This document shows positions 43,600-60,370 of a DNA stretch of 64,000 nt, in pieces. Under the pieces are notes generated by a model. That model searched no databases and was not told the origin of the DNA. It was given only the letters and a program-made list of their open reading frames with translations. The stretch comes from Alphaproteobacteria bacterium (GTDB lineage Bacteria; Pseudomonadota; Alphaproteobacteria; Bin95): NCBI GenBank assembly GCA_963665325.3, contig CAXXWS020000002.1:416001-480000 (forward strand). Direction: 5' to 3'. Each line of letters begins with the position of its first letter. Within the stretch, counting starts at the first letter, position 1. Made by a program: the position numbers and the translations under genes.

Positions 43600-43713
43600 G
43601 CATCCTCAAACGCTTCCCGGTCGGGTCTCACAAGCCCTTGTCGGCGCCGACGAAACTTCTAGTGCGCCCGCAGGTCGACGTGACCAGCGCCGCCGACGCA
43701 CTTGCTGTTTCCG

Positions 43714-44007: not shown

Positions 44008-44103
44008 CCTATTGTAGGATTGGCACCTGCCGCGGAACAGCGCTCTCTCGCCTCAAGACAAGCCTCAACGTCCACCGCCCCCGCCGCTGCCGGGCGCCTT
44101 CCC

Positions 44104-45087: not shown

Positions 45088-45091
45088 GCTT

Positions 45092-46147
45092 ATGGCCCGA
45101 AGACGCCACATGGAGCGCGATGCCGCCATCAGCCGCGCCGTCGCTGCCGGCCAGAGCGTCCGCTCCATTGCCGTCGACTACGACCTCGCCGTCTCGACGG
45201 TCTACGGCATCACCCGCCGCGAGGGCTGGACGTTCCATAACGGCCCGAGGCAGAAGCCCGGCTTCTGCGCTCGCGGCTGCTGCCCGCGTCCCCTGCCGCG
45301 CCCGCGCAACCGCTTCTGCAGCCATGAGTGTTTCGTGGCCTGGCGCCGGGCCCATCTTCCCGTCTGCCCCGGATGCGGAGGCAGGGTCGGGCGCCTCTCC
45401 TCCAAGTTCTGCTCGCGCCTCTGCTACCGGCTCTGGCTCCGGGACCGCTGGGCCGAAATCAACGAGGACCGCGACTGCCGCATCCTCATGGAAGCACGGT
45501 CCGGGAGGCCGCTGGCGCGGATCGCCGCCTTCCACGGCGTCAGCCACAGGACGGTCTCGAAGGTCGTCAACGGCCATCGGCAGGAAGACGGCGCCGTTTG
45601 CTCGGCTCCCGGCTGCCAGGCTCCGCTCCCACGGCGCCGGCTGCGTTTCTGCAGCGCCTCCTGCCGCCGGGCCTGGAACGAGGCACAGAGGCCGCCCTGC
45701 GCGAACGGTTGCGGCGCCCGCGCCAGCCGGCGCTCGGGTCGGTTCTGCGGCTCGCGCTGCCATGCCGCTCATGCCGCAGGCGAGGCCCGCCGGCGCAATC
45801 TCGTCCGCGACACATTCATGGTCCTCGCCGCGGCCGCCGGCGTGCCGCCCGCGGAGATCGCGCTCCGGACCGGCCTCAGCAAAGGCTATGTCTCGCAGAT
45901 CGTCCGCCGCCGCGACCGCCGTCTTCTTTCCGCCCCCGATCGCAAGGAGTCCGTCAGCATGTCCAGCATGCACATCCTGCCCGACGACCCCGACTGCCCG
46001 GATTGCGGCGCCCGCATGTGGAGCCGCACCGCACCCCGGACGAGGGAGTGCCAGGCATGCGGGTTCGTCCAGCATCTCGAGACGCTCGAAGAGAACGCAG
46101 AGCGTCTCCAGCGCGAAATCGACGCCGAAATCGCAAGCGGTGCCTGA
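45092..46147 (+). CDS. HTH plus FCS-type zinc-finger repeat protein
   Basis: Three HTH-like segments and four C..C...FC(S/G)..C motifs; C-terminal CPDC/CQAC ribbon. Confidence 0.65.
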   Translation: MARRRHMERDAAISRAVAAGQSVRSIAVDYDLAVSTVYGITRREGWTFHNGPRQKPGFCARGCCPRPLPRPRNRFCSHECFVAWRRAHLPVCPGCGGRVGRLSSKFCSRLCYRLWLRDRWAEINEDRDCRILMEARSGRPLARIAAFHGVSHRTVSKVVNGHRQEDGAVCSAPGCQAPLPRRRLRFCSASCRRAWNEAQRPPCANGCGARASRRSGRFCGSRCHAAHAAGEARRRNLVRDTFMVLAAAAGVPPAEIALRTGLSKGYVSQIVRRRDRRLLSAPDRKESVSMSSMHILPDDPDCPDCGARMWSRTAPRTRECQACGFVQHLETLEENAERLQREIDAEIASGA

Positions 46148-46191
46148 CTGCCGCACGCCTTTCCCCCGAATCCCCGCCCCTGGAGGACGAC

Positions 46192-46419
46192 ATGACCCCG
46201 GCAATCCCACCCCGCCTGTTCTACCCGGAACCGCTGTTCATGCACGACACGGCGCGCTGCCGCTGTTGCGGCTGTCACGACCTGGACGCCTGCGTGGACG
46301 AGGACTCCGACATGGCGTGCTGGTGGGTCGAGCCCGATCTCTGCTCGGCCTGCGCTGCCGAGCTGGCCGCAGGGCTCGATCCGGAAATGGCCGGCCTCTA
46401 TGCCGGGGACGGGGAATGA
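46192..46419 (+). CDS. Small Cys-rich zinc-binding protein
   Basis: CRCCGC.DLDAC...CWWV..DLCSAC; GGAGG RBS. Confidence 0.65.
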   Translation: MTPAIPPRLFYPEPLFMHDTARCRCCGCHDLDACVDEDSDMACWWVEPDLCSACAAELAAGLDPEMAGLYAGDGE

Positions 46420-47132
46420 CCCCCGCGCCCCATGACCGGGCCCGGACGGGACGGCGGTGCGCCTGCCGGCTCCTTGCAGCTGCCGCGCTCGCCGCCTGTC
46501 TCTCCTGGCCCGCCGGGGCGGAGGTGATTTCCGGGAAGGCCCGCGTGGTGGACGGCGACACGCTTGCCGTTGCCGGCCAGCGCATCCGCCTCGACGGGAT
46601 CGACGCCCCCGAGACGCGGCAGACCTGCCGGCGCAACGGACGGCGATGGGCCTGCGGGAAAGCCGCGACGAAGGCCATGCGCCGCCTCATCGGCCGGAAC
46701 CCGGTGCGCTGCGAGGTCAGCGACCGGGACCGCTACGGTCGTGCGGTCGCGACCTGCCATGCGGCCGGCCGGGACCTGCAGCAGGAACTGGTCCGCCAGG
46801 GTCTGGCGCTGGTCTACCGGCGCTACTCGACCCGCTACGTCCCCGAGGAGGATGCCGCGCGCCGGGAGCGCGCCGGCCTCTGGTCCGGGGCGTTCGAGGA
46901 GCCCTGGAACTGGCGCCGGCAGCGCCGCGAACGCAGGCAAACCCGGAACCCGCCGTCCCGCAATGGCGGTTCCTGCCTCATCAAGGGCAACATCTCCCGG
47001 AACGGCCGCATCTACCATGTGCCGGGCGGCGAACATTACGACCGGACCCGCATCGACGAATCCCGGGGCGAGCGCTGGTTCTGCACGGAGGCCGGGGCGC
47101 GGGCCGCCGGCTGGCGTCGCGCCCGGCGGTGA
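46416..47132 (+). CDS. Thermonuclease (SNase) family secreted nuclease
   Basis: VVDGDT, IRLDGIDAPE, DRYGR; C-terminal CLIKGNI...YH.PG...WFC. Confidence 0.9.
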   Translation: MTPAPHDRARTGRRCACRLLAAAALAACLSWPAGAEVISGKARVVDGDTLAVAGQRIRLDGIDAPETRQTCRRNGRRWACGKAATKAMRRLIGRNPVRCEVSDRDRYGRAVATCHAAGRDLQQELVRQGLALVYRRYSTRYVPEEDAARRERAGLWSGAFEEPWNWRRQRRERRQTRNPPSRNGGSCLIKGNISRNGRIYHVPGGEHYDRTRIDESRGERWFCTEAGARAAGWRRARR

Positions 47133-47234
47133 GTGCGTCTTGCCGGCTATGCCCCGAAGGAACGCCGCAGCCCGTTGCCGCCCCGCGCGCGCGGGGCCAG
47201 AGCGTCCCGTCTTTCGAAACCCGAAGGACGGGAC

Positions 47235-48824
47235 ATGACAACGGACGGCTCCCCGATCGCGCGCTTCGCGATCTATGCGCGCTATTCTTCCCCCTTGCAG
47301 GAGATGACCTCGATCGCAGGCCAGCTCCGCCTCTGCCGCGACCGCGTCGCCACTCTGGGCGGCGTGATCGCGGACGAATACACCGACCCGGAGCTTTCGG
47401 GCACGGCCATGCAGTTGCGCCCGGGGCTCCGGCAGCTGATCGAGGACGCCCGCGCGAGACGGTTCGACGCCGTCTACGTCGAAGCTCTCGACCGGCTCGC
47501 CAGGAGCCAGGCCGACATGACTTGGCTCTATCGGGAGCTCCGGTTCCTGGGGATCGACCTGTACAGCCTGGAGGACGGGCAGGTCGACGCCCTGCATGCC
47601 GGCATCAAGGCAATAGTGAGCGAGATGTTCATCGAAAATATCGGCAACAAGACGCGCCGCGGCCAGATCGAGGCCGTGCATGATCTTCGCCTCATCGGGT
47701 CCAGCGTCTATGGCTACAGGATCGCCAACCGCATCGACGAGAGCGGGAAGCCTGTCCGCGGGCTGCGGACCGTCGAACCCGGGGAAGCGGAGGTCGTGCG
47801 GCGCATCTACCGGCTCTATCTGGACGGCATGAGCCCCACCCAGATCGTCCGCCTGCTCGACCGGGAAGACGTGCCCGGCCCGGACGGGGAACCCTGGACG
47901 GTCCGCACCGTGCGCGGCACCAGCCAGAACGGCATCCTGCGCAACGAGATCTATTGCGGGCGGCTGATATACGGGCGCACCCGCAGCCGGCGCCATCCGG
48001 ACACCGGGCGGCGCCATTTCGATGCCGTCCCCCGCGAGCAATGGACCATTACCGAGGCGCCGGAGCTGCGCATCGTCGACGAGGAGACCTTTCAGGCCGT
48101 CCAGGACGAGGTGCAGCGCCGCCGCCGCCGCCACCACGCCGTGGTGACGCCGCAGCGCAAGGCGGCCTATCCGCTGACCGCCAGGGTCCGCTGCGGCCTT
48201 TGCGGCTCGCACATGATCATTGCGGACAGGAACACCTATCGCTGCGTGACCCGCCGGCGCGACCCGGAGAGCTGCAACAACGGCCGCGGCATCCTGCTGG
48301 AGGACCTGGAGGATAGTGCCGCCCGGCAGCTCTTCGGCTGGCTGCTGTCCCGCGACCGCGACTGGCAGGACATGTTCGCGGCCGCCGGGCGCGAGAACGC
48401 CGGGCGCCGCCGCATCCTCCAGGAGCGGGCCGGGGACGCCACCGACGGGATCGGCCGCCTGCTCGCCGTGATCGAAAGCGGCATCCCCTCGACCAGCATC
48501 GGCGACCGGGTTCTCGAGCTTGAGCGCGCCCGCAACGAAGCGTTAGCAGAACTGGAGCGAATGCCGGAACCGCCGCCGCCCGCCAGTTTCGACGTCAGGG
48601 CGTTCATGCGCGGGCGCGTCGCCGAGTTCCGGCGCGCCGTCGCCGGTAGCGCGCGGACCGACCGGCGCGAGCAGGTGCTGCTCGTCCTCCGCGACCTGAT
48701 CGCCCATATCGAGGTGCGCCCGTCCGACGGCCCCGAACGGGTCGAGGTGGAGACGGCCCCCGACATCCCGGCGATCGTCGAGATGATTTCGCGCCATGCC
48801 GCCGCCGGCGAACGCGGCGCATGA
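47235..48824 (+). CDS. Large serine recombinase
   Basis: IYARYSS, RPGL, DRLARS, YGY recombinase domain, CGLCG...YRC...C zinc ribbon. Confidence 0.92.
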   Translation: MTTDGSPIARFAIYARYSSPLQEMTSIAGQLRLCRDRVATLGGVIADEYTDPELSGTAMQLRPGLRQLIEDARARRFDAVYVEALDRLARSQADMTWLYRELRFLGIDLYSLEDGQVDALHAGIKAIVSEMFIENIGNKTRRGQIEAVHDLRLIGSSVYGYRIANRIDESGKPVRGLRTVEPGEAEVVRRIYRLYLDGMSPTQIVRLLDREDVPGPDGEPWTVRTVRGTSQNGILRNEIYCGRLIYGRTRSRRHPDTGRRHFDAVPREQWTITEAPELRIVDEETFQAVQDEVQRRRRRHHAVVTPQRKAAYPLTARVRCGLCGSHMIIADRNTYRCVTRRRDPESCNNGRGILLEDLEDSAARQLFGWLLSRDRDWQDMFAAAGRENAGRRRILQERAGDATDGIGRLLAVIESGIPSTSIGDRVLELERARNEALAELERMPEPPPPASFDVRAFMRGRVAEFRRAVAGSARTDRREQVLLVLRDLIAHIEVRPSDGPERVEVETAPDIPAIVEMISRHAAAGERGA

Positions 48825-49307: not shown

Positions 49308-49418
49308 AGCGCCGCCAACCATAACCTCCTCGCCGCGCCGCCGGTCGCTGCCCCGGCAACCCCGGAGCCGGAAATGTCCGGGGCGCCTCGGGAGGGCCAG
49401 GAAGAGGGAGGCGGCGCC

Positions 49419-50447
49419 ATGCGTGGCGATCCAGCGCCAACACACAGCCTGAAGGACCTGAACGCCTTGCTGGCGGCCGATATCGAGGCCGTTTGCCGAC
49501 ATTACCTTCCGAACGGGAAGCGCAACGGCAACTACTGGCAGGTGGGCAGCACCGCCGGCGAGGAGGGCGCCTCGCTGCGCATCAACCTGTCCGGGCGCTG
49601 GCGTGGACGCTGGAGGGACTGGGCCAACCCGAAGGACCGGGGCAGCCCCCTCGACCTGATCCGCGCCGTGCGCAACTACGCCAGCATCGGGGAAGCGGCC
49701 GCCGAGGTGCGCCGCTACCTGGCGCTTCCGGCATATGAGCGGCCCCGGTGCGGTCCCCGCCGCCCGGACGGCGCGCCGGAGGCGCAGACGGGCCTGGAAC
49801 GGGTGCTCGAGGGCGCGAAGACGATCGGGGCAGACGACCCGGCCGGGCGTTATCTCGCCTCGCGCGGCCTCGCCATAGAGGACGCCCGCGCCGCCGGGCT
49901 GCGCTTCCGCCCCGACACCTGGGTCCAGGTGGACGGCAAGAAATGCGAGCTGCCGGCCCTGCTCGCGCCGATCCGCGCGCTCGACGGCACGCTGGAGGGC
50001 CTGCAGCGGATATTCCTCGCCCCGGACGGAAGCAAGGCCTCGATCCCGGACCCGAAACGGACCAGCGGGCGGCTCTTCTCCGGCGCCGTGCGCTGGCCCA
50101 TGTCCGGGGCGAGCCGCATGGTGCTGACCGAGGGGATCGAGGACGCGCTCGCCGTCATAAGGGCACTCGGCGCCGGCCGGCCTCACGATATCGCCGTCGC
50201 GGCCGCGATCTCCGCCGGGCGCGTCCACCGCGTCGGCCTCTCCCCGGACATCCGGCGCGTGACGCTCGTCCAGGACCGCGACATGGCGGGCGAACAGGCA
50301 TGGGTCGCACTCTGCCGCGAGCATGGAGGCTCCGCCCTGCTGCTCGACCGGATCATTCCCGGCAAGAAGGACGCCAATGACGAGCTCCTCGCGCTCGGCC
50401 CCGCCGGGTTCCTGGCGAGGCTCGCGGCCCAGGGACTGTCCGGCTGA
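49419..50447 (+). CDS. Toprim-domain primase-like protein, paralog 1
   Basis: YLPNG...GRWRDWA; YLASRGL; TEGIEDAL; QDRD; KDAND. Confidence 0.82.
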   Translation: MRGDPAPTHSLKDLNALLAADIEAVCRHYLPNGKRNGNYWQVGSTAGEEGASLRINLSGRWRGRWRDWANPKDRGSPLDLIRAVRNYASIGEAAAEVRRYLALPAYERPRCGPRRPDGAPEAQTGLERVLEGAKTIGADDPAGRYLASRGLAIEDARAAGLRFRPDTWVQVDGKKCELPALLAPIRALDGTLEGLQRIFLAPDGSKASIPDPKRTSGRLFSGAVRWPMSGASRMVLTEGIEDALAVIRALGAGRPHDIAVAAAISAGRVHRVGLSPDIRRVTLVQDRDMAGEQAWVALCREHGGSALLLDRIIPGKKDANDELLALGPAGFLARLAAQGLSG

Positions 50448-50618
50448 CACGGGGGCTGCAGGGCCACCGCCGCGCACGCCGCAGCCCTCCCGCCGGCGCC
50501 TCCGTTCCCGGCCGGCCGCCGGAAGTTGGGGAAGGGGTTGCCGAGGTATCGATGCGGGCGCGGCTTGCTTCCGGCCCGTTCCGATCCCATACTCCCCAAC
50601 GGACAGGAGACGAGGCAC

Positions 50619-51161
50619 ATGACCTCTCCCGAAACCCCTTCCCCGGAACCGCAGCGCAGCATGTTCGGCATCGGTGACGGCAGCTGGAAGGCGATGATCC
50701 CGGCCGCCACCGTGCTCACCTTTTTCGTGCTCTTTCTGGTCGGGATACTCGGCTGGTTCGACAGTCGCATCGACGGGGTCGAAATGCGCCTGACCGCCCA
50801 GATCGTCGAGGTGAAGGCGGATCTGACGAACCGGATTGATGAGGTTAAGGCAGACCTCAGAGCAACCGAGACTCGCCTGTCCGACCGGATCGACCGGGTC
50901 GAGACTCGCCTGTCGGACCGGATCGACCGGGTAGAGACCGATCTCGGCACCCGCATCGACGGGGTGAAGGCGGAACTGGCTGCGAGCGAGGCGCGCCGCG
51001 CGGCCGTGGATGCGCAGCTTTCCGCCGATATCGAGCAGGTCTCCGCCGGTGTCGCGGAGAACCGGGCCGCGCATCGCGAGCTCGCCGGCTTCGTGCGCGC
51101 CAGCCGCTCGCAGGAGCCGCCTCCGGCGAGCGACCGGCCGGGTCCCGCACCGCCGCAGTAG
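50619..51161 (+). CDS. Membrane-anchored coiled-coil protein with 11-aa repeats
   Basis: One TM helix, then ETRLSDRIDRV x2 (33-bp tandem repeat 50868-50933); AGGAG RBS. Confidence 0.75.
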   Translation: MTSPETPSPEPQRSMFGIGDGSWKAMIPAATVLTFFVLFLVGILGWFDSRIDGVEMRLTAQIVEVKADLTNRIDEVKADLRATETRLSDRIDRVETRLSDRIDRVETDLGTRIDGVKAELAASEARRAAVDAQLSADIEQVSAGVAENRAAHRELAGFVRASRSQEPPPASDRPGPAPPQ

Positions 51162-51287
51162 CCGCACGCACCCCATAGCCGGCGCCGTTTTCGCCCCTTC
51201 CCGGCCCAAGGTCGGGAAGGGGTTTTTCGTGGCGATCCGCGCGGGCCGTCCTGTTCGCGCGTCCCTCCACGACAGGAGACGCTGCCC

Positions 51288-52580
51288 ATGCCCGGCGCGC
51301 CGGCTTCCGTCCCTCGCGACACGCATCAACCCGCCGAAGCGGCGGACTGCAACTGCAACAGCGGCAAGTCCGCGGACGCTACGCCGCCCGTCCGTTCATA
51401 TTCCTGGCACGCGCGGCGCCGGCTCGCCACGCGCGGCCTCTGCCTGAACTGCGGCCAGGTGCCCCCGGCGGACGGCGCGAAATACTGCTCCGGCTGCATC
51501 GAGCGCCGCCGCGCCAGCGACCGCAAGGCCGCCCGCAAACGCCGCCTGCTGCGCCGTAACCGCGGCCTCTGCGCAGAGTGCGGCGCCGTGGCCGAAAAGC
51601 CCCGCCAGCGGCTCTGCGAGGCCTGCAACGACAAACACCGGGCCGTGAGCCGCCGGCGCCAGCAAGACCGAAAGGAAGAACGGAAGCGGGCAGGCCTGTG
51701 CGTACAGTGCGGAGGCAGGGCGCCGGCCGAAGGCAATGCGAGCTGCGACGACTGCCTCGCCCAGCGCCGGCTGGCATACCGCGTCCGCATCGACCGCCGC
51801 CGGCGCCAGGGCGACCGTTCGCTCTGCATCGAGTGCGGCAAGGCGCCCCCGGCTCCCGGCCGCCGCCGCTGCCCGGACTGCCAGCCGCTCACCGCCGGGC
51901 GCGACAGGGACGCCGCCAGACACCGCCGGGAGGCCCGCCGCTCTGTCGGCCTCTGCACAGTCTGCGGGCAGCATTCCGCCGTCCGCGGACGCACGGCCTG
52001 CGAGGCCTGCCTCGCGGGCTGGCTTGACCAGTACAACCGCAAGACCCTGGCCCGCGTCGCGCAAGGCCTTTGCATCCGGTGCGGGAAAGAGCCCCCGGCA
52101 ACCGGGTTCACCGCGTGCGAGCCCTGCCGGGACAGCCACCGCGCCGCCAGTCTTGCGAAGTGGCGCCGGCGCACTGCCGAACGCCGCGCCATGCAGCGCT
52201 GCATACGCTGCGGCGAGGATCTCGCCGACGGGGAGCAGGAGGTCTGCGAGCCCTGCCGCGACACCCAGCGCCTGAGCGCGCGCCGGCGTGCCGACCGCCG
52301 CAAGGCGCTGGGCGTCTGCGTTCGCTGCGGGCGGCGCCCCGCCGGGCGAGGAGCGCGCGACTGCGGCCCCTGCCGCGACCGCCAGCGCGCCTACGCCTGG
52401 CGCGGCATGCCCGACCTGCCGCCCCGCTACACCGTGATCGAGATCGCCACCGGCACCGATCACGGCACCTGGGAAACCGTCCAGGAGGTCGCGGGCGCGC
52501 TCGCCTATGCGAAGCTGACGCTCGACGACGTCGAGATCCTGACCGACGCCGCGCCCATGGCCGCCTTCAGGAGCTGGTGA
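51288..52580 (+). CDS. Tandem C4 zinc-finger repeat protein 1 (8 repeats plus conserved C-terminal domain)
   Basis: 8x GLCxxCG-x11-CxxC plus Arg-rich helix; AGGAG RBS. Confidence 0.85.
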   Translation: MPGAPASVPRDTHQPAEAADCNCNSGKSADATPPVRSYSWHARRRLATRGLCLNCGQVPPADGAKYCSGCIERRRASDRKAARKRRLLRRNRGLCAECGAVAEKPRQRLCEACNDKHRAVSRRRQQDRKEERKRAGLCVQCGGRAPAEGNASCDDCLAQRRLAYRVRIDRRRRQGDRSLCIECGKAPPAPGRRRCPDCQPLTAGRDRDAARHRREARRSVGLCTVCGQHSAVRGRTACEACLAGWLDQYNRKTLARVAQGLCIRCGKEPPATGFTACEPCRDSHRAASLAKWRRRTAERRAMQRCIRCGEDLADGEQEVCEPCRDTQRLSARRRADRRKALGVCVRCGRRPAGRGARDCGPCRDRQRAYAWRGMPDLPPRYTVIEIATGTDHGTWETVQEVAGALAYAKLTLDDVEILTDAAPMAAFRSW

Positions 52581-52715
52581 CGCCGCCTCGCATCCCCTTC
52601 CCGGTCCCCGGCAGCCGCAACGCCGCCAAGGTCGGGAAGGGGTTGTTCGTGCGATCCGCGCGGGTCCGCCATTGGCAACCGCCCGCGCCCGTTTCCCGAT
52701 CAGGAGATATCGCAC

Positions 52716-53027
52716 ATGCCCGGCATGCCCGTTTCCGTCCTTCGCCCCGATGCGAACACCTTTCTGACGCACGTCTTCGGCCGCGGCCTCCAGGACAAGA
52801 CCTATGTGGTCGAGCGCTACCGCACCGGCATCGACGGCGAGATCCGGCGCCTGCCGGGCGGCAGGGGCCATCCGCTCACCCTCTCGCTGGCGACCGTCCG
52901 GGAGCTGCGCCCGGCGCGCAACGAGATCCTGATCTGCCGGTGCGAGAAAAAGCCGGACTCCGGCATCCAGTACTGGGGGGTGTGGGCGACCGGGCTCTTC
53001 GCGGAGGGCAGGCGCAAGGGGCGCTGA
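52716..53027 (+). CDS. Hypothetical protein
   Basis: AGGAG RBS, GC3-biased, preceded by the motif. Confidence 0.7.
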   Translation: MPGMPVSVLRPDANTFLTHVFGRGLQDKTYVVERYRTGIDGEIRRLPGGRGHPLTLSLATVRELRPARNEILICRCEKKPDSGIQYWGVWATGLFAEGRRKGR

Positions 53028-53137
53028 GGCGTTCACGCTCCGGCGCCTCGGTTCTCCCCTTCCCGGTCAGCAAGGTCGGGAAGGGGTTTTTCCTTCCGAA
53101 CCCGCCGTCGCTCGCTTTCCAGTCGTCAGGATCCGCC

Positions 53138-54322
53138 ATGGCACCGAGCCGCACCACCCAGCTGCGCCACGCCCGCCGCGAGGCAGGCCTTTGCCAGGAA
53201 TGCGGACAGGTCCCCCCGGAGGGCAACTCCACGCACTGCGCCGCTTGCAGCCAGCGCCGGCGCGAAAACAGGCGCCGGTCCCAGCAAAAGCGCCGCATGC
53301 GTCTTCGCGAACGCCTGCTCTGCCTGGACTGTGCCAAAGCCGCGCCCGAGCCTGGCCGCGCCCGTTGCTCTTCCTGCGCCGAAACGCACCGCACCGCCAC
53401 CAGGCACACCAACCGGCTCCTCCGCGAAACCCGGCTCAAGGCCGGCCTCTGCCGCCAATGCGGCCAGAAGCCTGCGGCGCCCGGCAATGCCACCTGCGAC
53501 GACTGCCTTGCCGCGCGCCGCCAAGCCTACCGCGCCAGCACCGCCAGGAAACGCCGCCGCACTGACCCCTCTGTCTGCCTTGACTGCGGCAACAACTCTG
53601 CGGCCCCCGGCAAACCCCGTTGCCCCGCATGTGTTCGTCTCGCCGCCAGGGCCCTCCGCGACCGGCTCCGCGCGGCCGGCATCTGCACAACGTGTACGGC
53701 ACGCCCCGTCACCGACGGTCACACCACCTGCGGTCACTGCCGGGACGCCAATCTCGCCTGGTTTCACCGCGAACAGGGCCGCCGCAAATCCGAAGGCCTC
53801 TGCCGCAAGTGCGGGCAGCAACCTCCCCTTGCGGGATTCACGCTCTGCCTGCCATGCCGCGAGAAGAGCCGCTTCGCTGGCCATGCGACCTGGGTCCGGC
53901 AAACGACGGAACGCCTGACATGCGGGTTATGCGTGCGTTGCGGGCAACATCCCGCTGCGGAGGGCGTCCGTGAATGTCCCGCTTGCCGTGAATACTCCCG
54001 CTCACGGGCGCTGGCCTATTACCGCCGAACGTCGTCCGAACGAAAGGCGCTGGGCCTTTGCGTCCGTTGCGGCAGGCGGCCCCCCGAACGCGGCACGCTC
54101 GACTGCGGTCCCTGTGGCGACAAGCAGCGCGCCCGCGAGTATCGCGGCATGCCCGACCTGCCCGACCGGTACACCCTGATCGAGATCGCGACCGGAACCG
54201 ATCACGGCACCTGGGACAACCTCCAGGAAGTCGCGGGCGCGCTGGCCTACGCGAAGCTCACGCTCGACGACGTCGAGATCGTCACCGACGCCGGGCCCAT
54301 GGCCGCCTTCAGGAGCTGGTGA
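53138..54322 (+). CDS. Tandem C4 zinc-finger repeat protein 2 (8 repeats plus conserved C-terminal domain)
   Basis: Paralog of 51288-52580; true start probably MAPSRTT after the motif. Confidence 0.85.
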   Translation: MAPSRTTQLRHARREAGLCQECGQVPPEGNSTHCAACSQRRRENRRRSQQKRRMRLRERLLCLDCAKAAPEPGRARCSSCAETHRTATRHTNRLLRETRLKAGLCRQCGQKPAAPGNATCDDCLAARRQAYRASTARKRRRTDPSVCLDCGNNSAAPGKPRCPACVRLAARALRDRLRAAGICTTCTARPVTDGHTTCGHCRDANLAWFHREQGRRKSEGLCRKCGQQPPLAGFTLCLPCREKSRFAGHATWVRQTTERLTCGLCVRCGQHPAAEGVRECPACREYSRSRALAYYRRTSSERKALGLCVRCGRRPPERGTLDCGPCGDKQRAREYRGMPDLPDRYTLIEIATGTDHGTWDNLQEVAGALAYAKLTLDDVEIVTDAGPMAAFRSW

Positions 54323-54426
54323 CGCCGGCCCCATCCCCTTCCCGCCCCGGCAGCCGCATGGCCGCCAAAGGTCGGGAAGGGGCTTGTCGAGGGTGACTGC
54401 AAACAGCCACCCGGAGGACATATCCG

Positions 54427-54693
54427 ATGCCCGAGCCCGCCCCCTCGATGCGCACGTTCCGGATCGACGGAATCGGCCATGCCGGCGAGACCCTCGACAC
54501 CTGGTTCGTCGAGGCCCCCTGTTCCCGGCAGGCGCTGTCCCGCCTCTCCGAGAGCCTGGCGGACCGCGCCGAAACCGCCGGCTGGCGCCTCTACACGCTC
54601 CAGTACTGCGCCGATATCCGCATCGACGAAGTCGACGCCGCGCTGGCGTCCCCCGGCGCTGCCGCCTATATTCCGCAACAGGGAGTCGCCTGA
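54427..54693 (+). CDS. Hypothetical protein
   Basis: GGAGG RBS, preceded by the motif. Confidence 0.7.
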   Translation: MPEPAPSMRTFRIDGIGHAGETLDTWFVEAPCSRQALSRLSESLADRAETAGWRLYTLQYCADIRIDEVDAALASPGAAAYIPQQGVA

Positions 54694-54696
54694 TCC

Positions 54697-55065
54697 ATGG
54701 CCATGACCGCATTCGAAACCGCCACGCTGGCATTCCAGAAGGCGACCGTCGCTTTCCAGGAATCCACCATGCGGTTCCAGGAATCCACTATCGGATTCCA
54801 GAACGCTTCCCTCGAGCTGCAACGCGACGGTCTCTATCTCCAGGAGGCCGCCATCTACGTCCAGGCCGGCGTCGGCCTTCTTCAGGCTGCCCTGATCGGC
54901 TACGGGCTCTGGATGATGCACCGCGCGTCCACGGACCGGAACCGCCTCATGGACGAAGAACGTGTTCGCGCCGATCGGCGACATGAGGAAGCCATGACCG
55001 CCCTCAAGGAGCTGATCGCGCGCACGGCGTCCCCCTCCTCTCCTCCCGGCGCCAGCGCCGCTTGA
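54697..55065 (+). CDS. Heptad-repeat membrane protein
   Basis: AFETATL/AFQKATV/AFQESTM/RFQESTI/GFQNASL, then a TM helix. Confidence 0.65.
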   Translation: MAMTAFETATLAFQKATVAFQESTMRFQESTIGFQNASLELQRDGLYLQEAAIYVQAGVGLLQAALIGYGLWMMHRASTDRNRLMDEERVRADRRHEEAMTALKELIARTASPSSPPGASAA

Positions 55066-55198
55066 CCCGCCGGGCGTTCTTCGCCCCGCATCTCCTTCCC
55101 TTCCTGCCCGTTCCCGGCCGCTGCGGCATTCACGCCGCAAAGGTCGGGGACGGGTTTTTCGGGTGGTGCCAACCAGTTCCACCGAAAGGGCTTGAGCG

Positions 55199-55552
55199 AT
55201 GCAGCACATGAACGAGACCATCCGCAGCGTGCTGGCCGCGCACGGCATCGAGCGAAGATTCGCTGTCCTGCTCGCGGACCACGCAAGCAGCAATTTCAAC
55301 GAGCATTCCTACCTGGTCGAGTGGCCGGGCGAGCTCGGCGGCGCGCTCGTCTACCGGAGCGAGGAGGCCTGGCGAGCCGCCGCGGGCGACGACGCCTCCT
55401 GCTTCGACCTCTGGCCCTGGGCCGTCGAGGAAGTCTGCACCGATTACATGTACGCGGCGATGTACGAGGCCGGAATGTTCGACGAACACGGCGAGGTGGC
55501 GGAGGACTGCCCCCAGCGCGAAGCGGCGATCCAACTCTGCCTGGGCAACTGA
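55199..55552 (+). CDS. Acidic hypothetical protein
   Basis: GC3-biased ORF preceded by the motif. Confidence 0.7.
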   Translation: MQHMNETIRSVLAAHGIERRFAVLLADHASSNFNEHSYLVEWPGELGGALVYRSEEAWRAAAGDDASCFDLWPWAVEEVCTDYMYAAMYEAGMFDEHGEVAEDCPQREAAIQLCLGN

Positions 55553-55682
55553 CCGGTCCGGCATTCCGGTCGGCGCTTCCCCATCCCCGGCCTTTGCGGC
55601 ATCGACGCTGCGAAGGTGGGGAAGGGGCTTTTCGCGGTGAGTTCGAGCAACTCGCAATCAACCAGTTGCAGGGAGCAACACC

Positions 55683-56102
55683 ATGAACGGCCTGAACCGC
55701 GTCGACCTGATCGGCAACCTCGGCGGCAACCCCGAGATCCGGACCATGCAGAACAGCAGCGAGGTCGCCAATTTCTCCATCGCCACCAACGAGGTCTACA
55801 AGGACCGCCAGACCGGCGAGTACAAGGAGCTCACCGAGTGGCACCGGATCGTCGTCTACCAGCAGGGTCTCATCGACATGCTGAAGAAGCACGGCGAGAA
55901 GGGCCGCCTGGCGCACATCACCGGCAAGCTGCGCACCCGCAAGTGGACGGACCGCGACGGCAACGACCGCTACTCCACCGAGATCGTGGTCGGCCCCCGC
56001 GGCTGCATCAACTTCCTCGACCCCAAGCGGGACGGGGCGGGGAACGGAAACCGTCCGCCGGCGCCGCCCCCGGAAGCCTATCAGGACGATTTCGCCGCCT
56101 GA
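55683..56102 (+). CDS. ssb: Single-stranded DNA-binding protein
   Basis: NRVDLIGNLG.NPEIR, TEWHRIV, GKLRTRKW.DRDG.DRYSTEIV. Confidence 0.95.
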   Translation: MNGLNRVDLIGNLGGNPEIRTMQNSSEVANFSIATNEVYKDRQTGEYKELTEWHRIVVYQQGLIDMLKKHGEKGRLAHITGKLRTRKWTDRDGNDRYSTEIVVGPRGCINFLDPKRDGAGNGNRPPAPPPEAYQDDFAA

Positions 56103-56115
56103 GCGAACGCCCCCC

Positions 56116-56150
56116 AGCCCCGGAACCCGAGGGTTCCGGGGCTTCTTCCT
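56116..56150 (+). terminator. Intrinsic terminator after ssb
   Basis: AGCCCCGGAACCC/GGGTTCCGGGGCT followed by TCTTCCT. Confidence 0.7.
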
Positions 56151-56406
56151 TGTACGCTCAGCAACGTCCCGGGGCCCGCCTCGGCGCGTTTTTTCGTTGC
56201 CCCCGTCCGCGGGTCCCCCGCACTTCGGTGACCTCCGTCTTCCCGGGCTGGGCCCGGAAGGGATGGCGGAACGCGGCCGCTCTTTGCTGATCGCCGGAGC
56301 GCCGCCCCGGTCCGGAGAAGGTGGGGAAGGGGTTTTCCGGGCGGCATTGCGGGCCTCGCTCCTGCTTGCCCTCGTGCTACAATCCCCCACAGAAAGGAGC
56401 TGCACC

Positions 56407-56664
56407 ATGACCGCAGCCGATCTCGCCCCCTGGACAACGCCCGCGATCACCATCGCCCTCATCGCCTGGCTCCGCATGGACCTCGGCAAGCGCATCGACC
56501 GTCTCGAGGAGCGAATGGACCGGCGCATCGACGGCATCAACGCGCGTCTCCGTGCCCTGGAAATCGCCGTCGGCGCCATGGCGGCCAAGCTCGACCTGCT
56601 CGAGCGCTACTTCCTGCGGCCGAACGAGCCTCTCGACAAGCCGTCCCCGGAAGCGTCCGAGTAG
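56407..56664 (+). CDS. Small membrane-anchored coiled-coil protein
   Basis: AAGGAG RBS; short TM, then RIDRLEERMDRRID. Confidence 0.7.
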   Translation: MTAADLAPWTTPAITIALIAWLRMDLGKRIDRLEERMDRRIDGINARLRALEIAVGAMAAKLDLLERYFLRPNEPLDKPSPEASE

Positions 56665-56674
56665 CTTCCCCCTG

Positions 56675-56700
56675 ACCCCGGCCTCCGCGCCGGGGTTTTT
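56675..56700 (+). terminator. Intrinsic terminator
   Basis: ACCCCGGC/GCCGGGGT followed by TTTT. Confidence 0.65.
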
Positions 56701-56945
56701 CCATTCCGACGATCCAGCGCCTCGGGCCCCGCCCCCGGGGCGCTTTTTCGTGCCCCCGTTCCCGGCCTGCCCGTACTGCCGGGCGTCCCGCATGCCGGGC
56801 GCTGGCCGGGAAGCGTTCTGTGCGGCCGGCCGTCGCCCATCAGCCGCCGTCGTGCCGGCCGCGAGGCAAGAAAGGTGGGGAAGGGGTCTGTCGGGCGGTA
56901 TCGCGGCCATCCCGGTCGCGACCGCAGCCCGAAAGGATTTTCGGA

Positions 56946-57122
56946 ATGACCGTTCTGCTGGACCTCGCCTTCGACGCGATCGACGATCGCCACGCCGTCG
57001 CCGAGCTCGGACTCGATGCGCTCCCCCTCCGCGACAGCGTCCTGGAGGACAGCCTGCCCCGCTGGGGAGACCAGGCGACCCTGTTCCCCTGGGAGCCCGA
57101 TACCGCCGGAGACGCCGGCTGA
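56946..57122 (+). CDS. Small acidic hypothetical protein (58 aa)
   Basis: AAGGA RBS, preceded by the motif. Confidence 0.55.
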   Translation: MTVLLDLAFDAIDDRHAVAELGLDALPLRDSVLEDSLPRWGDQATLFPWEPDTAGDAG

Positions 57123-57747
57123 ACCCTGTCGCCCCGATGCCCCCCGGCGTCGGGGCGATCGTTCTGTACCGGCTCACCGCCGCGGCCCCCCGGTCCGTGC
57201 CTATATGCCTGCCGGCAGTCGCTTCGCTCCGGTAGCGGCATCGTGGGCGGGGATGGCCGGTCCGGAGCCGGGCCGCATCGAACCCGCCGTCCGGTCGCAG
57301 GCTCCCTCCCGTCACGTCCGCTGCTGACCGCCCGGTTCCAGACCGGCTGCGGGGACGCCGGGCCGCGACCGCCGCGCCGGGCGGGCTTCGCCCTTCCCCC
57401 CGTCACGCCGCCCGCTTGAGGCCCGGCTTGAATCTGAAATCGACACCCTCGCTGCGCTCGCCCGGCGCAGGCGCCGGATGAGGGCCGCTTCGCGCCCTGG
57501 CGGAGCGTGCTGCGCACGCGGGAGGCCGGTCGTGGCCTTCGGCATGCCGGGGGCGCTGCGCTGTGACCCCCCGGCAGGCCGAAAGCCGTTGGTGGGGGGC
57601 AGGGGCAGCCGGAGGCATGGCGGCATGGGGAGACCTGGAAATGCAACCCGCGACCTCGGGCAGGCCTGGAAAAGGTGGGGAAGGGGTTGTTCGGGTGGAT
57701 TCGCGGCCAATCCGGTCGGCGACGGTGATCCGGAAGGAGGATCGGTC

Positions 57748-58776
57748 ATGGCGGTCATGCATGGAGGCATTTCGCTGCAGGAGCTGGCAGCGCGGCTGGC
57801 GACCGAGATCGAGGCGGTCTGCGCCTACTATCTGCCGAACGGCCGGCGTGACGGCCCGTTCTGGCAGGTGGGCAGCGTCGCGGGCGAGCCCGGCAGCTCG
57901 CTGCGCGTCAATCTGGCGGGCCGGCTGCGCGGGCGCTGGAAGGACTGGGCGAACGGGCGGGATCGCGGCGACGCGCTGGACCTGATCCGCGCGGCCCGGG
58001 ACCTGGCGTCGGTCGGCGAGGCCGCGAAGGAGGCCCGGCGCTTCCTGTCCCTGCCCGATGCCGAGCGCCCGGCTTCGGTCGTGTCCGTTGCGGCATGCCG
58101 GCCGGTGAACCGGGCGGGCCTGGAGCAGGTGCTGGCCCGTTCGCGCGCGATCTGCGCCGACGACCCGGCCGGGCGCTATCTCGCCTCGCGCGGGCTGGCG
58201 GTGGACGACGCGCGGGACGCCGGCCTGCGGTTCCGGCCCGACGCCTGGGTGCAGGTGGACGGGCAGAAGCTGGAACTGCCGGCCCTGCTGGCGCCGATCC
58301 GCGCGCCGGACGGGACGCTGGAGGGCCTGCAGCGCATCTTCCTCGCCCCGGACGGCGGGAAGGCGGCGATCGCGGACCCGAAGCGGACCAGCGGGCGGCT
58401 CCACTCCGGCGCCGTGTGGTGGCCTGCTGCCGACGATGCGCGGCACGTGGTGCTGACCGAGGGCGTGGAGGACGCGCTCGCGGTCCGCCGGGCCCTGGGC
58501 GCGCATGGCCGCCGGCATATCGCCATCGCGGCTGCCGTGTCCGCCGGGCGCATCCCGCAGGTCGCCCTGCCGCCCGGCACGGTGCGGGTCACGCTGGTGC
58601 AGGATCGGGACCGCGCGGGCGAGGAGGCCTGGGCCGCGCTGGTCAACAGGCATGCCGGCCCGGATGTGCTGGTCGGGCGCCTCGTCGCCGGCGCGAAGGA
58701 TGCGAATGACGACCTCCTCCGGCTCGGCCCCGCCGGATATCGCCGGCTGCTGCTCTGCGGGGGCCTGCCGGCCTGA
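57748..58776 (+). CDS. Toprim-domain primase-like protein, paralog 2
   Basis: Colinear with 49419-50447 (TEGVEDAL, QDRD, KDAND); AAGGAGG RBS. Confidence 0.82.
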   Translation: MAVMHGGISLQELAARLATEIEAVCAYYLPNGRRDGPFWQVGSVAGEPGSSLRVNLAGRLRGRWKDWANGRDRGDALDLIRAARDLASVGEAAKEARRFLSLPDAERPASVVSVAACRPVNRAGLEQVLARSRAICADDPAGRYLASRGLAVDDARDAGLRFRPDAWVQVDGQKLELPALLAPIRAPDGTLEGLQRIFLAPDGGKAAIADPKRTSGRLHSGAVWWPAADDARHVVLTEGVEDALAVRRALGAHGRRHIAIAAAVSAGRIPQVALPPGTVRVTLVQDRDRAGEEAWAALVNRHAGPDVLVGRLVAGAKDANDDLLRLGPAGYRRLLLCGGLPA

Positions 58777-59008
58777 GCCACGATGCCCGGCGCCATCGGC
58801 GTCGGGCATCTGTTGCGTACCGGTCCGGGGCGCAGTTGGCGCCGGCCCCGCCGCGCCGTGGCGGTGGATGGCCGCGGAACGGGCCTGGAAGGGAATGGCG
58901 GGGCGTTCGGGGGATTTCGGCTGCCCGTACGCGCCGGGGCCGGCCGATGCGGCCGGGAGAAAGGTGGGGAAGGGGCTGTTGGGGTAAATCCCGAACAGGA
59001 GAGAGACG

Positions 59009-59266
59009 ATGAACGGCGACGCATACTGGACCGTGGACATCCTGCTGCCCTACTACACCGGCGGGCAGCGCTGGCGGGTCGTGCATGGCGGCGGGAGCGA
59101 GCAGCTCGCCCGGCGCATGCTGGACGCGGAGCGCCGGAACGGCAACCGCGCGCGCCTGCGCTGCTGGACAGCCGAGGTCGTGGACGCCGATGAGGTGCAA
59201 GACCTCGCCGAAGCGGTCCCCGTTCCTCAGCCTGCCGACCGGCTGGACAACGCGGTCCCCTTCTGA
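59009..59266 (+). CDS. Hypothetical protein ending in ...DNAVPF
   Basis: AGGAG RBS, preceded by the motif. Confidence 0.7.
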   Translation: MNGDAYWTVDILLPYYTGGQRWRVVHGGGSEQLARRMLDAERRNGNRARLRCWTAEVVDADEVQDLAEAVPVPQPADRLDNAVPF

Positions 59267-59273
59267 AGCAGAG

Positions 59274-59306
59274 AGCCCCGGCGCCTCCGGCGCCGGGGCT
59301 TCTTCT
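59274..59306 (+). terminator. Intrinsic terminator
   Basis: AGCCCCGGCGCC/GGCGCCGGGGCT followed by TCTTCT. Confidence 0.7.
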
Positions 59307-59587
59307 ATGTACCGCTCCGGCGGCCTCCTCCCGGGCGGCCGGGAGACCGGCTCCGCTATCCGGAACCCTGGCGGGGCCTCCGCAGGCTCCGGCCCCGCCA
59401 GGAACCCGGAAGACTGCGCCTGGAAGTTCCTCCTGACGGCGACGTCTGGCGCAAGCGCCAGGTCGCTTCGCTCCCGGGCCGGGAAGGAGGAATGCTGTCG
59501 GCCGGCGCTTCGGCGGCGAAATCCAAAAGGTAGGGAAGGGGTTGTTCGGGTGGAATTGCGGTCAATCCCGGCCGCGATCGCGAAGAG

Positions 59588-60139: not shown

Positions 60140-60370
60140 TGAGGTATGCCCTGGAGAATGTCGAGAAAATAGGTTGGCACACCTGTGCACCCAGGTGCAA
60201 TTCAAACTATCAACAATTTCAACGACTTATCCGGTCGATGAAATTCGGAAGGCGCGGCACACGGAACCCGGAGGACCAGCCGCCCGGTGGATGTATCCGG
60301 GGAGCACCGATCGCATGCTCCGATCGGCCATTCCTGCGCTTGCCTGTTACGTGAACACTGGGCCCTGACG
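60140..60370. other. Candidate oriT/relaxase promoter region
   Basis: AT-richer non-coding stretch directly upstream of the relaxases; inverted repeat CACCTG..CAGGTG near 60178-60197; nic site not identified. Confidence 0.4.

Follow-up and report, generated by a model that had tools for sequence, protein, structure and literature searches.

PolyZnF, an undescribed family of predicted C4 poly-zinc-finger proteins carried by integrated conjugative or mobilizable elements

In this study, the whole stretch of DNA that was analysed (64 kb; hereafter the window) was found to carry two paralogous genes, A and B, which encode predicted poly-zinc-finger proteins (polyZnF; Table 1). The genes lie in an element that starts at approximately 38.4 kb, and the gene order of this element runs from a DnaA_N protein, ParA, ParB, a nuclease and a serine recombinase through the module of the polyZnF genes to two TrwC relaxases. 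This setting is an integrated conjugative or mobilizable element. Every gene from 47.1 kb to the end of the window at 64 kb, the relaxases included, is on the plus strand, and an AT-richer stretch was found at approximately 60140-60240, 5' of the relaxase. No oriT or nic site was identified in the window, so that 'leading region' is a provisional label for this part of it; in other loci of the family, the relaxase lies elsewhere or on the opposite strand (L050 and L054). Moreover, no tRNAs were found in the window, and an Rfam scan of 37-64 kb gave zero matches. Gene A starts with an ATG that has AGGAGA 7 nt upstream, and gene B starts with an ATG after AGGA, within a longer TTG-started frame (52070-54322). 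The GC3 values of 0.88 (A) and 0.80 (B), the homologues in 76 loci and a dN/dS below 1 support the view that both frames are coding.

Table 1. Positions of the polyZnF genes, their domains and the associated genes and hairpins in the window.
Feature	Position	Strand	Basis or remark
PolyZnF paralogue A gene, P0001, 430 aa	51288..52580	+	ORF, 8 CxxC-x11-CxxC units
PolyZnF paralogue B gene, P0002, 394 aa	53138..54322	+	ORF, 8 CxxC-x11-CxxC units
Array A, eight finger + basic-segment repeats	51432..52403	+	repeat alignment
Array B, eight repeats	53183..54145	+	repeat alignment
C-terminal domain of A, residues 373-430, acidic, Cys-free	52404..52577	+	88% identical to that of B
C-terminal domain of B, residues 337-394, acidic	54146..54319	+	pI/identity computation
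orf103, 103 aa, basic, no known family	52716..53027	+	tblastn, alignment
DUF7146 + Toprim_3 protein (primase-like), copy 1	49374..50447	+	domain matches
DUF7146 + Toprim_3 protein, copy 2	57478..58776	+	Toprim relatives in 22/76 loci
SSB gene, member of the polyZnF module	55683..56102	+	Pfam SSB E 4.7e-28; NCBIfam ssb
Hairpin, 14 pairs + T run, 65 nt 5' of A start; 3' arm is the G-rich motif	51193..51223	+	terminator-like scan; RNA fold z-score -3.0
Longer hairpin between A and orf103; 3' arm is the G-rich motif	52594..52642	+	RNA fold z-score -2.8
Hairpin, 13 pairs + T run, between orf103 and B	53056..53086	+	terminator-like scan; z-score -4.7
Hairpin 3' of B	54335..54382	+	z-score -1.6, weak

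Each protein contains 16 CxxC motifs, and the unit period of the resulting repeats is 39-43 aa in A and 36-43 aa in B. When all six frames of the window were scanned for CxxC-x9-13-CxxC, 16 of the 17 matches fell in A and B, eight in each. The two proteins aligned colinearly with 51% identity (200/394, E 1e-117) and also in a shifted register (29% identity, E 8e-18), and these out-of-register alignments indicated an internal repeat. An earlier note, made from the sequence alone, had described two paralogous ORFs with eight repeats each and the signatures GNA(S/T)CDDCLA in repeat 3 and GFTxCxPCR in repeat 6; the scan and the alignments confirmed both descriptions, but the spacer between the CxxC pairs, which the note gave as x12, was counted as 11 residues. 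No tandem repeat of the unit period was found at the DNA level, which suggested that the array repeats are old and diverged. In an alignment of all 16 repeats, the four cysteines were the sole invariant columns (Cys in 16/16 repeats at every ligand column), which separates these units from the Cys2-His2 fingers of the C2H2 class. The arginine content is 17.9% in A and 16.0% in B, and the arrays have a pI of 10.3-10.4 (10.37 for residues 1-372 of A) and a net charge of +44 to +48. The sequences therefore agree with the earlier description of C4 poly-zinc-finger paralogues with basic segments, and from this architecture we infer that the cysteines bind zinc and that the arrays bind nucleic acid. 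A has a homologue that is 79% identical (P0003), and B has an orthologue that is approximately 92% identical (in L001).

The last 58 residues of both proteins form a domain without cysteine that has a pI of about 4.1 and a net charge of -6 to -7. The synonymous divergence between A and B is much lower in this domain (dS 0.25) than in the array (dS 0.92). The domain was matched by 103 representative proteins, in 85 of which it lies at the extreme C-terminus, and it was seen once on a RepC-like protein; a Pfam search with it gave no family. Since it is common to otherwise diverged arrays and occurs once on a RepC-like protein, this acidic domain may be a new docking module. The domain profile hit designed beta-propellers, with no single stretch passing, and these hits were taken to be spurious. 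Furthermore, a single protein with a longer, fused form of polyZnF was found (P0287, a single-member cluster), in which a Strawberry-notch-type helicase C-terminal domain is joined to three fingers and the acidic domain; it may be a deletion fusion.

The small gene orf103 lies between A and B. By tblastn, it was found in 65 of the 76 loci of the family, and in 56 loci it lies directly 5' of a ZnF gene, mostly with a gap of 83-91 nt. Its alignment has 16 invariant columns, the pI is 10.3, and the homologues fall into 116 clusters, each of which is unnamed or 'hypothetical'. No match to orf103 was found in Pfam, NCBIfam, PADLOC or PHROGs or, by tblastn, in the PLSDB plasmids, and a sequence search of the PDB chains gave nothing (best E 0.3). 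The acidic domain, the partner gene and the element itself had all been passed over in the earlier note.

With regard to the type of finger, DZR_2 (PF18912) was the sole Pfam family that was matched repeatedly. P0001 (18.4 bits, E 0.002) and P0002 (10.4 bits, E 0.59) did not reach its cut-off of 27 bits; 41 of 66 family members matched it at E<=0.01 (best 2.9e-6), and 5 of 67 hits carry a precomputed PF18912 label. These matches and labels suggest that the finger unit is probably a distant relative of DZR_2, which we take to be the Pfam family covering the N-terminal finger of ComFC. The N-terminal C4 finger of ComFC has been reported to have the form CxxC-x8-CxxC and to precede a helix, and ComFC itself to have affinity for ssDNA (PMC9005727). 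In both ComFC and polyZnF, a C4 finger with a short spacer precedes a helix, a probable one in polyZnF, and the affinity of ComFC is for incoming ssDNA; however, ComFC has a single finger and a phosphoribosyltransferase domain, and the DNA-binding role of the finger itself is described as unsettled (PMC9005727). Searches of the PDB chains with P0001 and with the repeat and family profiles gave only a marginal match to the rRNA-binding ribbon of eL37 (E 0.0036 and 0.0014 for the two profiles, respectively). eL37 has the same CxxC-x11-CxxC spacing and a basic tail and binds RNA, but it is a single-copy archaeal and eukaryotic ribosomal protein, and homology between the two is not established by these marginal E-values. 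A structure comparison with the homologue P0059 (model pLDDT 0.68) returned its own cluster and low-score phage double-zinc-ribbon leads, with TM values of 0.24-0.49 by query and 0.40-0.65 by matched row.

Eukaryotic C2H2 arrays and the CCHC knuckles of CNBP and UMSBP also set many small zinc modules in a row to bind nucleic acid. CNBP-type proteins bind single strands; CNBP reportedly binds G-rich elements, and UMSBP is said to be a mitochondrial origin-binding protein. PolyZnF differs from the eukaryotic arrays in its C4 ligands and in lacking both a conserved linker of the C2H2 type and hypervariable reading positions. The earlier statement that long tandem finger arrays are mainly eukaryotic overlooked the C-terminal ribbons of bacterial topoisomerase I and YrdD, since the tandem 4-Cys ribbons of E. 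coli topoisomerase I and YrdD have been reported to bind ssDNA (PMC4678816), with four such domains described in YrdD (PMC9369019). These proteins (PF01396, Zn_ribbon_Top1) and polyZnF are both bacterial tandem arrays of C4 zinc modules, predicted ones in polyZnF. However, the topoisomerase I ribbons are described as four-stranded sheets that bind ssDNA mainly by aromatic stacking (PMC4678816), whereas polyZnF has a spacer of 9-11 residues between the Cys pairs, an Arg-rich segment after them and no catalytic domain. No match to PF01396 was obtained with P0001 and P0002 at E<=1 or with the 66 members at E<=0.01. The units of polyZnF are rich in arginine with aromatic residues only scattered, which is a point against the reading of polyZnF as a nucleic-acid binder that is preferred below.

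The family sample comprised 76 loci, all from MAGs, of several phyla. A and B are tandem paralogues of an undescribed protein family that is carried by integrated conjugative or mobilizable elements. The literature search gave no description of such a family, and a count of the word 'zinc' in the main text of PMC11541004 gave 0. No characterised family matched A and B, in agreement with the earlier note: no Pfam family was matched above threshold and none in NCBIfam, PADLOC or PHROGs; no ArdC-N, OB-fold or other known domain was found in A and B with Pfam and NCBIfam; and P0001, P0002 and orf103 matched 0 families among the PADLOC models. Moreover, polyZnF was absent from 72,556 PLSDB plasmids (tblastn with P0001 and P0016) and from the INPHARED phages (tblastn with P0002). 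The conserved order of the module is orf103-like gene, hairpin, polyZnF, SSB, Toprim primase-like protein and YAcAr (SLOG) protein. Clustering of the neighbours placed the orf103-like gene in 63 loci, with all of its 65 copies on the strand of the ZnF gene, the SSB gene in 48 (median +1849 nt), YAcAr in 37, a tyrosine integrase in 26 and Toprim in 21; by tblastn, an SSB gene lies within approximately 2 kb downstream of the ZnF gene in 53 of the 76 loci. The number of repeats per protein ranges from three to eight, with the 5-repeat class the commonest, and several genomes carry three or four loci each. Across phyla, the identity of the ZnF proteins reaches 92% between Alpha and Gamma and 77% between Alpha and Binatia, the latter pair being from whole chromosomes. 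The multiple loci per genome and the identity across phyla both speak for mobility.

Tandem ZnF paralogues were found in nine loci, and the array was more diverged than the C-terminal domain in 9 of 10 pairs. The dN/dS of the array is 0.33-0.57, with Cys, Gly and basic character kept, and that of the C-terminal domain is 0.03-0.46; the pattern in the array fits constraint at the level of composition rather than of individual residues. The dS of the array (0.84-1.03) compares with mostly 0.1-0.3 in the flanking genes, with values of 0.63 (orf122b) and 0.55 (orf155) against L007. The helix residues, which had been called strongly diverged, are as similar between the paralogues as the rest of the unit (42% identity in the helix segments and 40% in the knuckles minus Cys). 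Likewise, the proposal that variable helices set specificity is not supported by the mean column entropy among 58 members of the 5-repeat class, which is 1.39 bits between the knuckles, 1.55 bits in the non-Cys knuckle positions and 0.07 bits at the Cys ligands. Comparison of homologues, as the earlier note had proposed, showed variation in the repeat counts but none concentrated in the helices. Within the main clade, every repeat is conserved in a sequence of its own, with a median pairwise array identity of 55%, and no periodic hypervariable positions were found in the arrays.

The reading that we prefer, at a probability of roughly 0.4, is that polyZnF is a nucleic-acid binder of low specificity whose C-terminal domain docks a partner and whose role is in the establishment or protection of the incoming element. 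In this reading, the strongly basic array, in which an Arg-rich and probably helical segment comes after every C4 finger, would use its numerous fingers and arginines to contact nucleic acid without much sequence specificity. The likeliest target would be the single strand entering the recipient at conjugation, or structured RNA made from that strand; the acidic C-terminal domain would dock the protein to its partner, and polyZnF would thereby help to establish or protect the element. In Agrobacterium, the protein that coats the T-strand, VirE2, has a C-terminal export signal and is encoded after a small partner gene (VirE1). VirE1 and VirE2 offer a possible analogy for orf103, polyZnF and its C-terminal domain; however, the VirE2 family is not among the Pfam matches of A and B, and orf103 is basic, unlike an acidic chaperone.

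The time and place of action would be those suggested by the genomic context. Protection of incoming DNA was one of three candidate roles in the earlier note and fits this context best, with SSB, then the Toprim primase and YAcAr, following the ZnF gene. SSBs have been reported as typical of plasmid leading regions, where the genes share one orientation (PMC11541004), and the association with SSB was observed here by both tblastn and clustering. Toprim_3 proteins have been described as active primases of T4SS elements, some of which are transferred to the recipient (PMC5512222), and the N-terminal domain of ArdC has been reported to bind ssDNA (PMC6222260). Like the leading-region proteins SSB and ArdC, polyZnF is encoded beside SSB in a block of one orientation that adjoins the relaxase (PMC11541004); however, those proteins are found on plasmids, whereas polyZnF has no ArdC or SSB domain and is absent from PLSDB. 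Other points weigh against this reading. The main-clade repeats each keep their own sequence, which suggests a defined target or a defined three-dimensional assembly and not a generic coat; the inverted repeat 5' of the ZnF gene, described below, would suit a regulator; the leading-region label is provisional for the window; and contacts between proteins are another activity reported for C4 fingers (PMC9005727).

Throughout the family, the ZnF gene is immediately preceded by a hairpin or an inverted repeat whose sequence differs clade by clade, and this family-wide feature allows some regulatory link. An inverted repeat between the orf103-like and ZnF genes was found as a pattern in 40 of the 76 loci, and a covariance model gave 42 matches in 39 loci, all of them on the plus strand and almost every one a short distance before the ZnF gene; 29 of the matches had served to train the model. 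The hairpin between orf103 and B occupies the position of the conserved inverted repeat in distant loci. In a simple stem scan, stems of >=9 bp were present upstream of 57 of 80 ZnF genes against 156 of 400 shuffles, which is not discriminating at this GC. The G-rich motif AAGGTCGGGAAGGGG is confined to the clade of the window (13 of 76 loci, with one degenerate position allowed), where it precedes 12 genes and hairpins occur at 6 of the 12 sites; in the element type of L004-L012 it lies exactly before ZnF, orf103 and SSB. Integron-like cassettes were considered and rejected for want of an integron integrase and of fitting core sites. Frpo-type ssDNA promoters were likewise rejected: the stems are just 11-14 bp without -35/-10-like boxes, and a promoter scan of 46-64 kb gave 0 sigma-70-like sites.

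It is possible, although rather unlikely, that polyZnF is a regulator whose target, in the form of DNA or RNA, is the hairpin or inverted repeat preceding its own gene, and that it acts as an autorepressor, as a repressor of a zygotic-induction regulon or, through its Arg-rich segments, as an antiterminator. The inverted repeat that is conserved before the ZnF gene of at least 39 loci would suit such a regulator, as would the similar gap between the orf103-like and ZnF genes in most loci, the different hairpin at the same place in the window clade, whose motif arm stands before some dozen genes, and the placing of the motif in the L004-L012 type. The N protein of lambda is an Arg-rich peptide that binds an RNA hairpin, and gp32 of T4 is under autogenous control. 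A precedent has been reported in Reg576 of p576, an autoregulated protein that binds a repeated operator before four promoters of establishment genes (PMC6294495). Both Reg576 and polyZnF are encoded by the element within an establishment region, a putative one for polyZnF, in which a repeated motif precedes several establishment genes (PMC6294495); however, Reg576 is a small ribbon-helix-helix dimer, whereas polyZnF is a large C4 array for which motif binding is a candidate activity, and proteins of 330-430 aa with four to eight fingers are large for a repressor. The link that the earlier note drew between polyZnF and the G-rich motif was not supported, as the motif is limited to one clade and does not differ among L001, L002, L003 and L007, the arrays of which are nevertheless at synonymous saturation against A and B (dS 0.84-1.03). 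Moreover, orf103 follows the motif at least as well, with identities of 85-96% where the motif is exact, 74-80% where it is a variant and 36-54% where the repeat is different, and it is an equally good candidate binder. The main-clade hairpin pairs are mostly invariant, with compensatory change in 2 of 9, a pattern compatible with recognition of either structure or sequence.

In a narrower version, which we regard as improbable, polyZnF proteins would be readers of the clade-specific hairpin that precedes their own gene and, in this element, some dozen establishment genes, and would in this way time a zygotic-induction regulon after transfer. Tandem diverged paralogues would then give control specific to the element, and in a variant of this proposal polyZnF would travel via the T4SS with the DNA, with the invariant C-terminal domain as an export or docking signal.

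A role in anti-defence is similarly doubtful. The fingers would bind host proteins, or the basic array would be a decoy or blocker of a nuclease or defence system of the recipient, and tandem diverged paralogues would broaden the range of targets. [quoted passage not shown] However, P0287 stands alone in its cluster and could have arisen by deletion, dN/dS is below 1 throughout, and the conservation and low helix entropy of the main-clade arrays are not the pattern of an arms race; no PADLOC model was matched, although these models cover defence rather than anti-defence. Finally, although the modular architecture of three to eight repeats and the several deeply diverged array types within one backbone would suit a programmable sequence reader, in which each finger-helix module reads a few bases through variable helix residues, this is very improbable given helices that are not the variable part, the absence of periodic hypervariable positions, conserved repeat identities and a candidate motif that does not co-vary with the arrays.

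In conclusion, a conjugative element reaches its new host as a naked single strand, which it must protect and express, and the proteins that serve this purpose are known mainly from a few plasmid models. PolyZnF, a family that has had no name, comes with a partner gene and a hairpin that are both conserved, lies among SSB, a primase and a DprA-like SLOG protein, and is spread over phyla of uncultured bacteria. If polyZnF binds the incoming strand or controls early genes, it would be a new component of the establishment toolkit and one of the few long zinc-finger arrays in bacteria.

The two polyZnF ORFs, A (P0001) and B (P0002), are real and coding. In each protein, 16 CxxC motifs pair up into eight CxxC-x11-CxxC units that recur every 36-43 residues, and 16 of the 17 matches to CxxC-x9-13-CxxC in six frames of the whole window fell inside these two ORFs. 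No DNA-level tandem repeat with this 36-43-residue period was found, and the repeats are thus old. The paralogues align colinearly at 51% identity, the four Cys are the sole invariant positions in an alignment of their 16 repeats, and each protein is 16-18% Arg, with an array pI of about 10.3. These data confirmed the description in the earlier note of two paralogous eight-repeat C4 finger proteins with basic segments. Its claim that the helices had diverged strongly was not borne out, since the helix segments share 42% identity between the paralogues and the knuckles without Cys share 40%. The acidic C-terminal domain, orf103 and the mobile-element setting, all described below, are additions to that note.

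Coordinates of the features discussed (nt, within the window)
Feature	Position	Strand	Remarks
Isocitrate/isopropylmalate dehydrogenase gene	37763-38473		left edge
DnaA_N-domain protein, ParA, ParB, DUF5131, HTH protein, SNase-domain nuclease, large serine recombinase	38440-48824		
DUF7146 + Toprim_3 paralogues	49374-50447 and 57478-58776		same element
Small proteins with 11-residue repeats	50526-51161 and 56197-56664		same module
polyZnF A (P0001)	51288-52580	+	430 aa; Shine-Dalgarno-like sequence upstream; GC3 0.88
orf103	52716-53027		conserved 103-aa partner gene, between the paralogues
polyZnF B (P0002)	53138-54322	+	394 aa; Shine-Dalgarno-like sequence upstream; GC3 0.80
SSB	55683-56102		
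Inverted repeat with 20-nt arms	59359-59410		
Candidate oriT	60140-60240		AT-richer stretch
TrwC-type relaxase genes	60287-61627 and 61621-63999		tandem, 7-nt overlap

A word-indexed protein search returned 67 polyZnF relatives, every one unnamed or 'hypothetical', and the exact P0001 and P0002 sequences were not found in a collection of 15 billion proteins. In a genome scan, tblastn confirmed 140 relatives, of which the best 80 were retained; they represent 76 distinct loci, every one from a MAG. Going by the record titles, 56 of these loci come from Alphaproteobacteria, 9 from Gammaproteobacteria and one each from Nitrospinota, Acidobacteriota and Binatia, with 8 unclassified; several genomes carried 3-4 polyZnF loci. 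Identity across phyla reached up to 92% between Alpha- and Gammaproteobacteria and up to 77% between Alphaproteobacteria and Binatia, the latter both whole chromosomes, and the non-proteobacterial sequences fell within proteobacterial clades of the tree. The ZnF proteins of L067 (an Acidobacteriota bin) and L068 (a Rhodospirillales bin) were separated by zero branch length, and both contigs were shorter than 3.5 kb. The explanation is either that the gene was transferred very recently or that binning went wrong, the latter being possible for the Acidobacteriota sequence because it is identical to the Rhodospirillales one and lies on a short contig. Tandem polyZnF paralogues occurred in 9 loci, one of which, L014, has three copies side by side.

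The spacers between Cys pairs (n=408) were of 11 residues in 245 cases, 10 in 84, 9 in 77 and 13 in 2. The repeat unit probably represents a distant finger of the double-zinc-ribbon type, because DZR_2 was matched by 41/66 family members at E<=0.01. P0001 and P0002 themselves met no Pfam cut-off, scoring 18.4 and 10.4 bits with DZR_2 against a cut-off of 27, and NCBIfam, PADLOC and PHROGs gave no match for either, so that a match to a characterised family, which the earlier note had named as a possible refutation, did not emerge. In the PDB sequence search, the repeat and family profiles matched eL37 alone, at marginal E-values. The family was not found in PLSDB (plasmids) or INPHARED (phages), and no description of such a family was found in the literature searched.

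The C-terminal 58 residues of A and B form an acidic domain without Cys (pI about 4.1) that is 88% identical between the paralogues. Since its dS of 0.25 is far under the 0.92 of the array, the two domains are held alike by recombination or conversion, plus selection. The C-terminal domain was also more similar than the array in 9/10 tandem paralogue pairs, and within the window's clade its DNA is 90-95% identical across four array types. A search with the domain alone returned 103 representative proteins; it ended within 5 residues of the protein end in 85/103, at least one full finger was present in 42/103, and many of the others were short fragments. P0064 joins a RepC N-terminal domain to a C-terminal domain 82% identical to that of the window, and P0287/P0090 combine a Strawberry-notch-type helicase C-terminal domain with three fingers and the acidic domain (all from the protein collection). 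The architectures of these proteins hint that the acidic domain is a portable C-terminal module. A few chimeras that include fragments of a transposase or integrase seem to have arisen by rearrangement.

The polyZnF genes sit within an integrated mobile element. The element seems to have been inserted into the dehydrogenase gene at its left edge, as is suggested by the presence of the N-terminal third alone. The genes listed in the table from the DnaA_N-domain protein to the large serine recombinase are followed by a block in one orientation, which holds two Toprim/DUF7146 proteins, the ZnF genes, the SSB and small ORFs. Both DUF7146 + Toprim_3 proteins also gave weak matches to the TIGR02760 TraI model, in its C-terminal part, and in each of the two small proteins a hydrophobic stretch is followed by coiled-coil-like repeats of 11 residues. 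The two TrwC relaxases share 44% identity over 426 residues, the first being without the helicase part. The relaxase is of a distant MOBF type, with at most 31.6% identity among the ten PLSDB matches listed, and all 209 PLSDB records matching it lie below 60% identity. The coupling protein of the element is located outside the window. The candidate oriT falls in the 320 nt of non-coding DNA that precede the first relaxase gene; judged by eye, it appears to contain a short inverted repeat, which is absent from the computed repeat list.

Neighbouring genes were surveyed in two ways: 17 window proteins were searched for in the 76 loci by tblastn, and all ORFs of those loci were clustered, with names from Pfam. 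By tblastn, orf103 was present in 65 loci, SSB in 53, Toprim in 22 and relaxase in 13. By clustering, orf103-like genes were found in 63 loci (median -493 nt; 65/65 copies on the ZnF strand), SSB in 48 (+1849 nt), YAcAr in 37 (+3781 nt), a tyrosine integrase in 26 (-4595 nt), Toprim in 21 and an ORF of roughly 100 aa in 20. The conserved core, by these counts, therefore runs from orf103-like through polyZnF and SSB to primase-like and SLOG proteins, within integrative elements. The orf103 family consists of basic proteins of roughly 100 aa in 116 clusters, tightly conserved, with 16 invariant columns (His, Asp, Glu, Arg and Gln among them) and a variable Lys/Arg-rich insertion; orf103 matched no known family. 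One published study describes SSBs as markers of plasmid leading regions, where genes share one orientation (PMC11541004), and another describes the Toprim_3 proteins of T4SS elements as active primases, a number of which pass into the recipient (PMC5512222). The SSBs of the window's clade bear a non-canonical acidic tail; the usual acidic-Ile/Val-Pro-Phe tip is found at the end of those from distant loci.

The G-rich 15-mer occurs in 12 copies on the + strand with up to 2 mismatches, from 50523 to 59541, each with a start codon about 30-90 nt downstream, so that 12 consecutive genes are preceded by it; about 40 nt of similar sequence lies 3' of each copy. With up to 3 mismatches on both strands, 23 matches were found against 2.6 expected, a number reached in 0/100 shuffles. 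At 6/12 sites the 15-mer forms the 3' arm of a hairpin, in some cases with a T run after it, and two of these six were called terminator-like. Intergenic hairpins lie at 51193-51223 and 53056-53086. Compensating changes were seen in the hairpins at 55140 and 55613, and the sister element L002 is without the orf88-to-SSB block that lies between two copies. The 15-mer might serve as an operator or as a terminator/attenuator, or recombination at it might shuffle gene cassettes; Reg576 (PMC6294495) offers a precedent in which a repeated operator stands ahead of establishment genes. The motif is confined to the window's clade, being exact in 8/76 loci and present in 13/76 with one degenerate position.

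The orf103-like and ZnF genes of distant loci are mostly 83-91 nt apart, and the space between them holds a different inverted repeat that is conserved in sequence. RNAalifold of 29 sequences gave 9 pairs, with a compensatory change in 2; the pattern was found in 40/76 loci, and a covariance model gave 42 matches in 39 loci (L018:9858-9921 among them) and none in the window's clade. Since the window's clade and the distant loci each have a hairpin, with differing sequences, the family as a whole has a hairpin directly 5' of the ZnF gene, and the sequence of that hairpin depends on the clade. The main-clade repeat consists of two small palindromes without a clear U run, and a copy of one arm also lies 3' of the ZnF stop in six loci. 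The hairpin or motif type is tracked by orf103 no less closely than by the arrays, and orf103 may be the real hairpin binder or a partner of the C-terminal domain.

Compared with the sister elements L001, L002 and L007, backbone dS is mostly 0.1-0.3, with orf122b (0.63) and orf155 (0.55) as exceptions against L007. In L002 and L007 the ZnF array is separated from A and B alike by a dS of 0.84-1.03; within the window's clade four array types are resolved by the tree, and array dN/dS is 0.33-0.57. The homologue comparison proposed in the earlier note yielded 3 to 8 repeats per protein. Among 58 sequences of the most frequent class, that with 5 repeats (median identity 55%), the Cys columns had an entropy of 0.07 bits, the remaining knuckle positions 1.55, the segments between knuckles 1.39 and the C-terminal domain 1.44, and no periodic hypervariable positions were found. 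Since the inter-knuckle entropy lies below that of the knuckles and such positions are lacking, the helices form no special variable surface, and the suggestion that variable helices set specificity was not supported.

The best-supported reading, held tentatively at a probability of about 0.4, predicts that polyZnF is a multivalent nucleic-acid binder of low sequence specificity, belonging to an establishment module and carrying an acidic docking domain. That polyZnF is a regulator is a live alternative, although we consider it rather unlikely, and a function as an anti-defence protein, also live, seems more doubtful still. The programmable-reader model is not supported by the entropy of the 58 sequences, in which the helices are not the special variable surface, and is highly improbable. 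As a multivalent binder, the polyZnF array would contact nucleic acid at many points with little sequence specificity, its acidic C-terminal domain would serve for docking, and its putative target would be the incoming single strand, or transcripts from that strand, within the establishment module.
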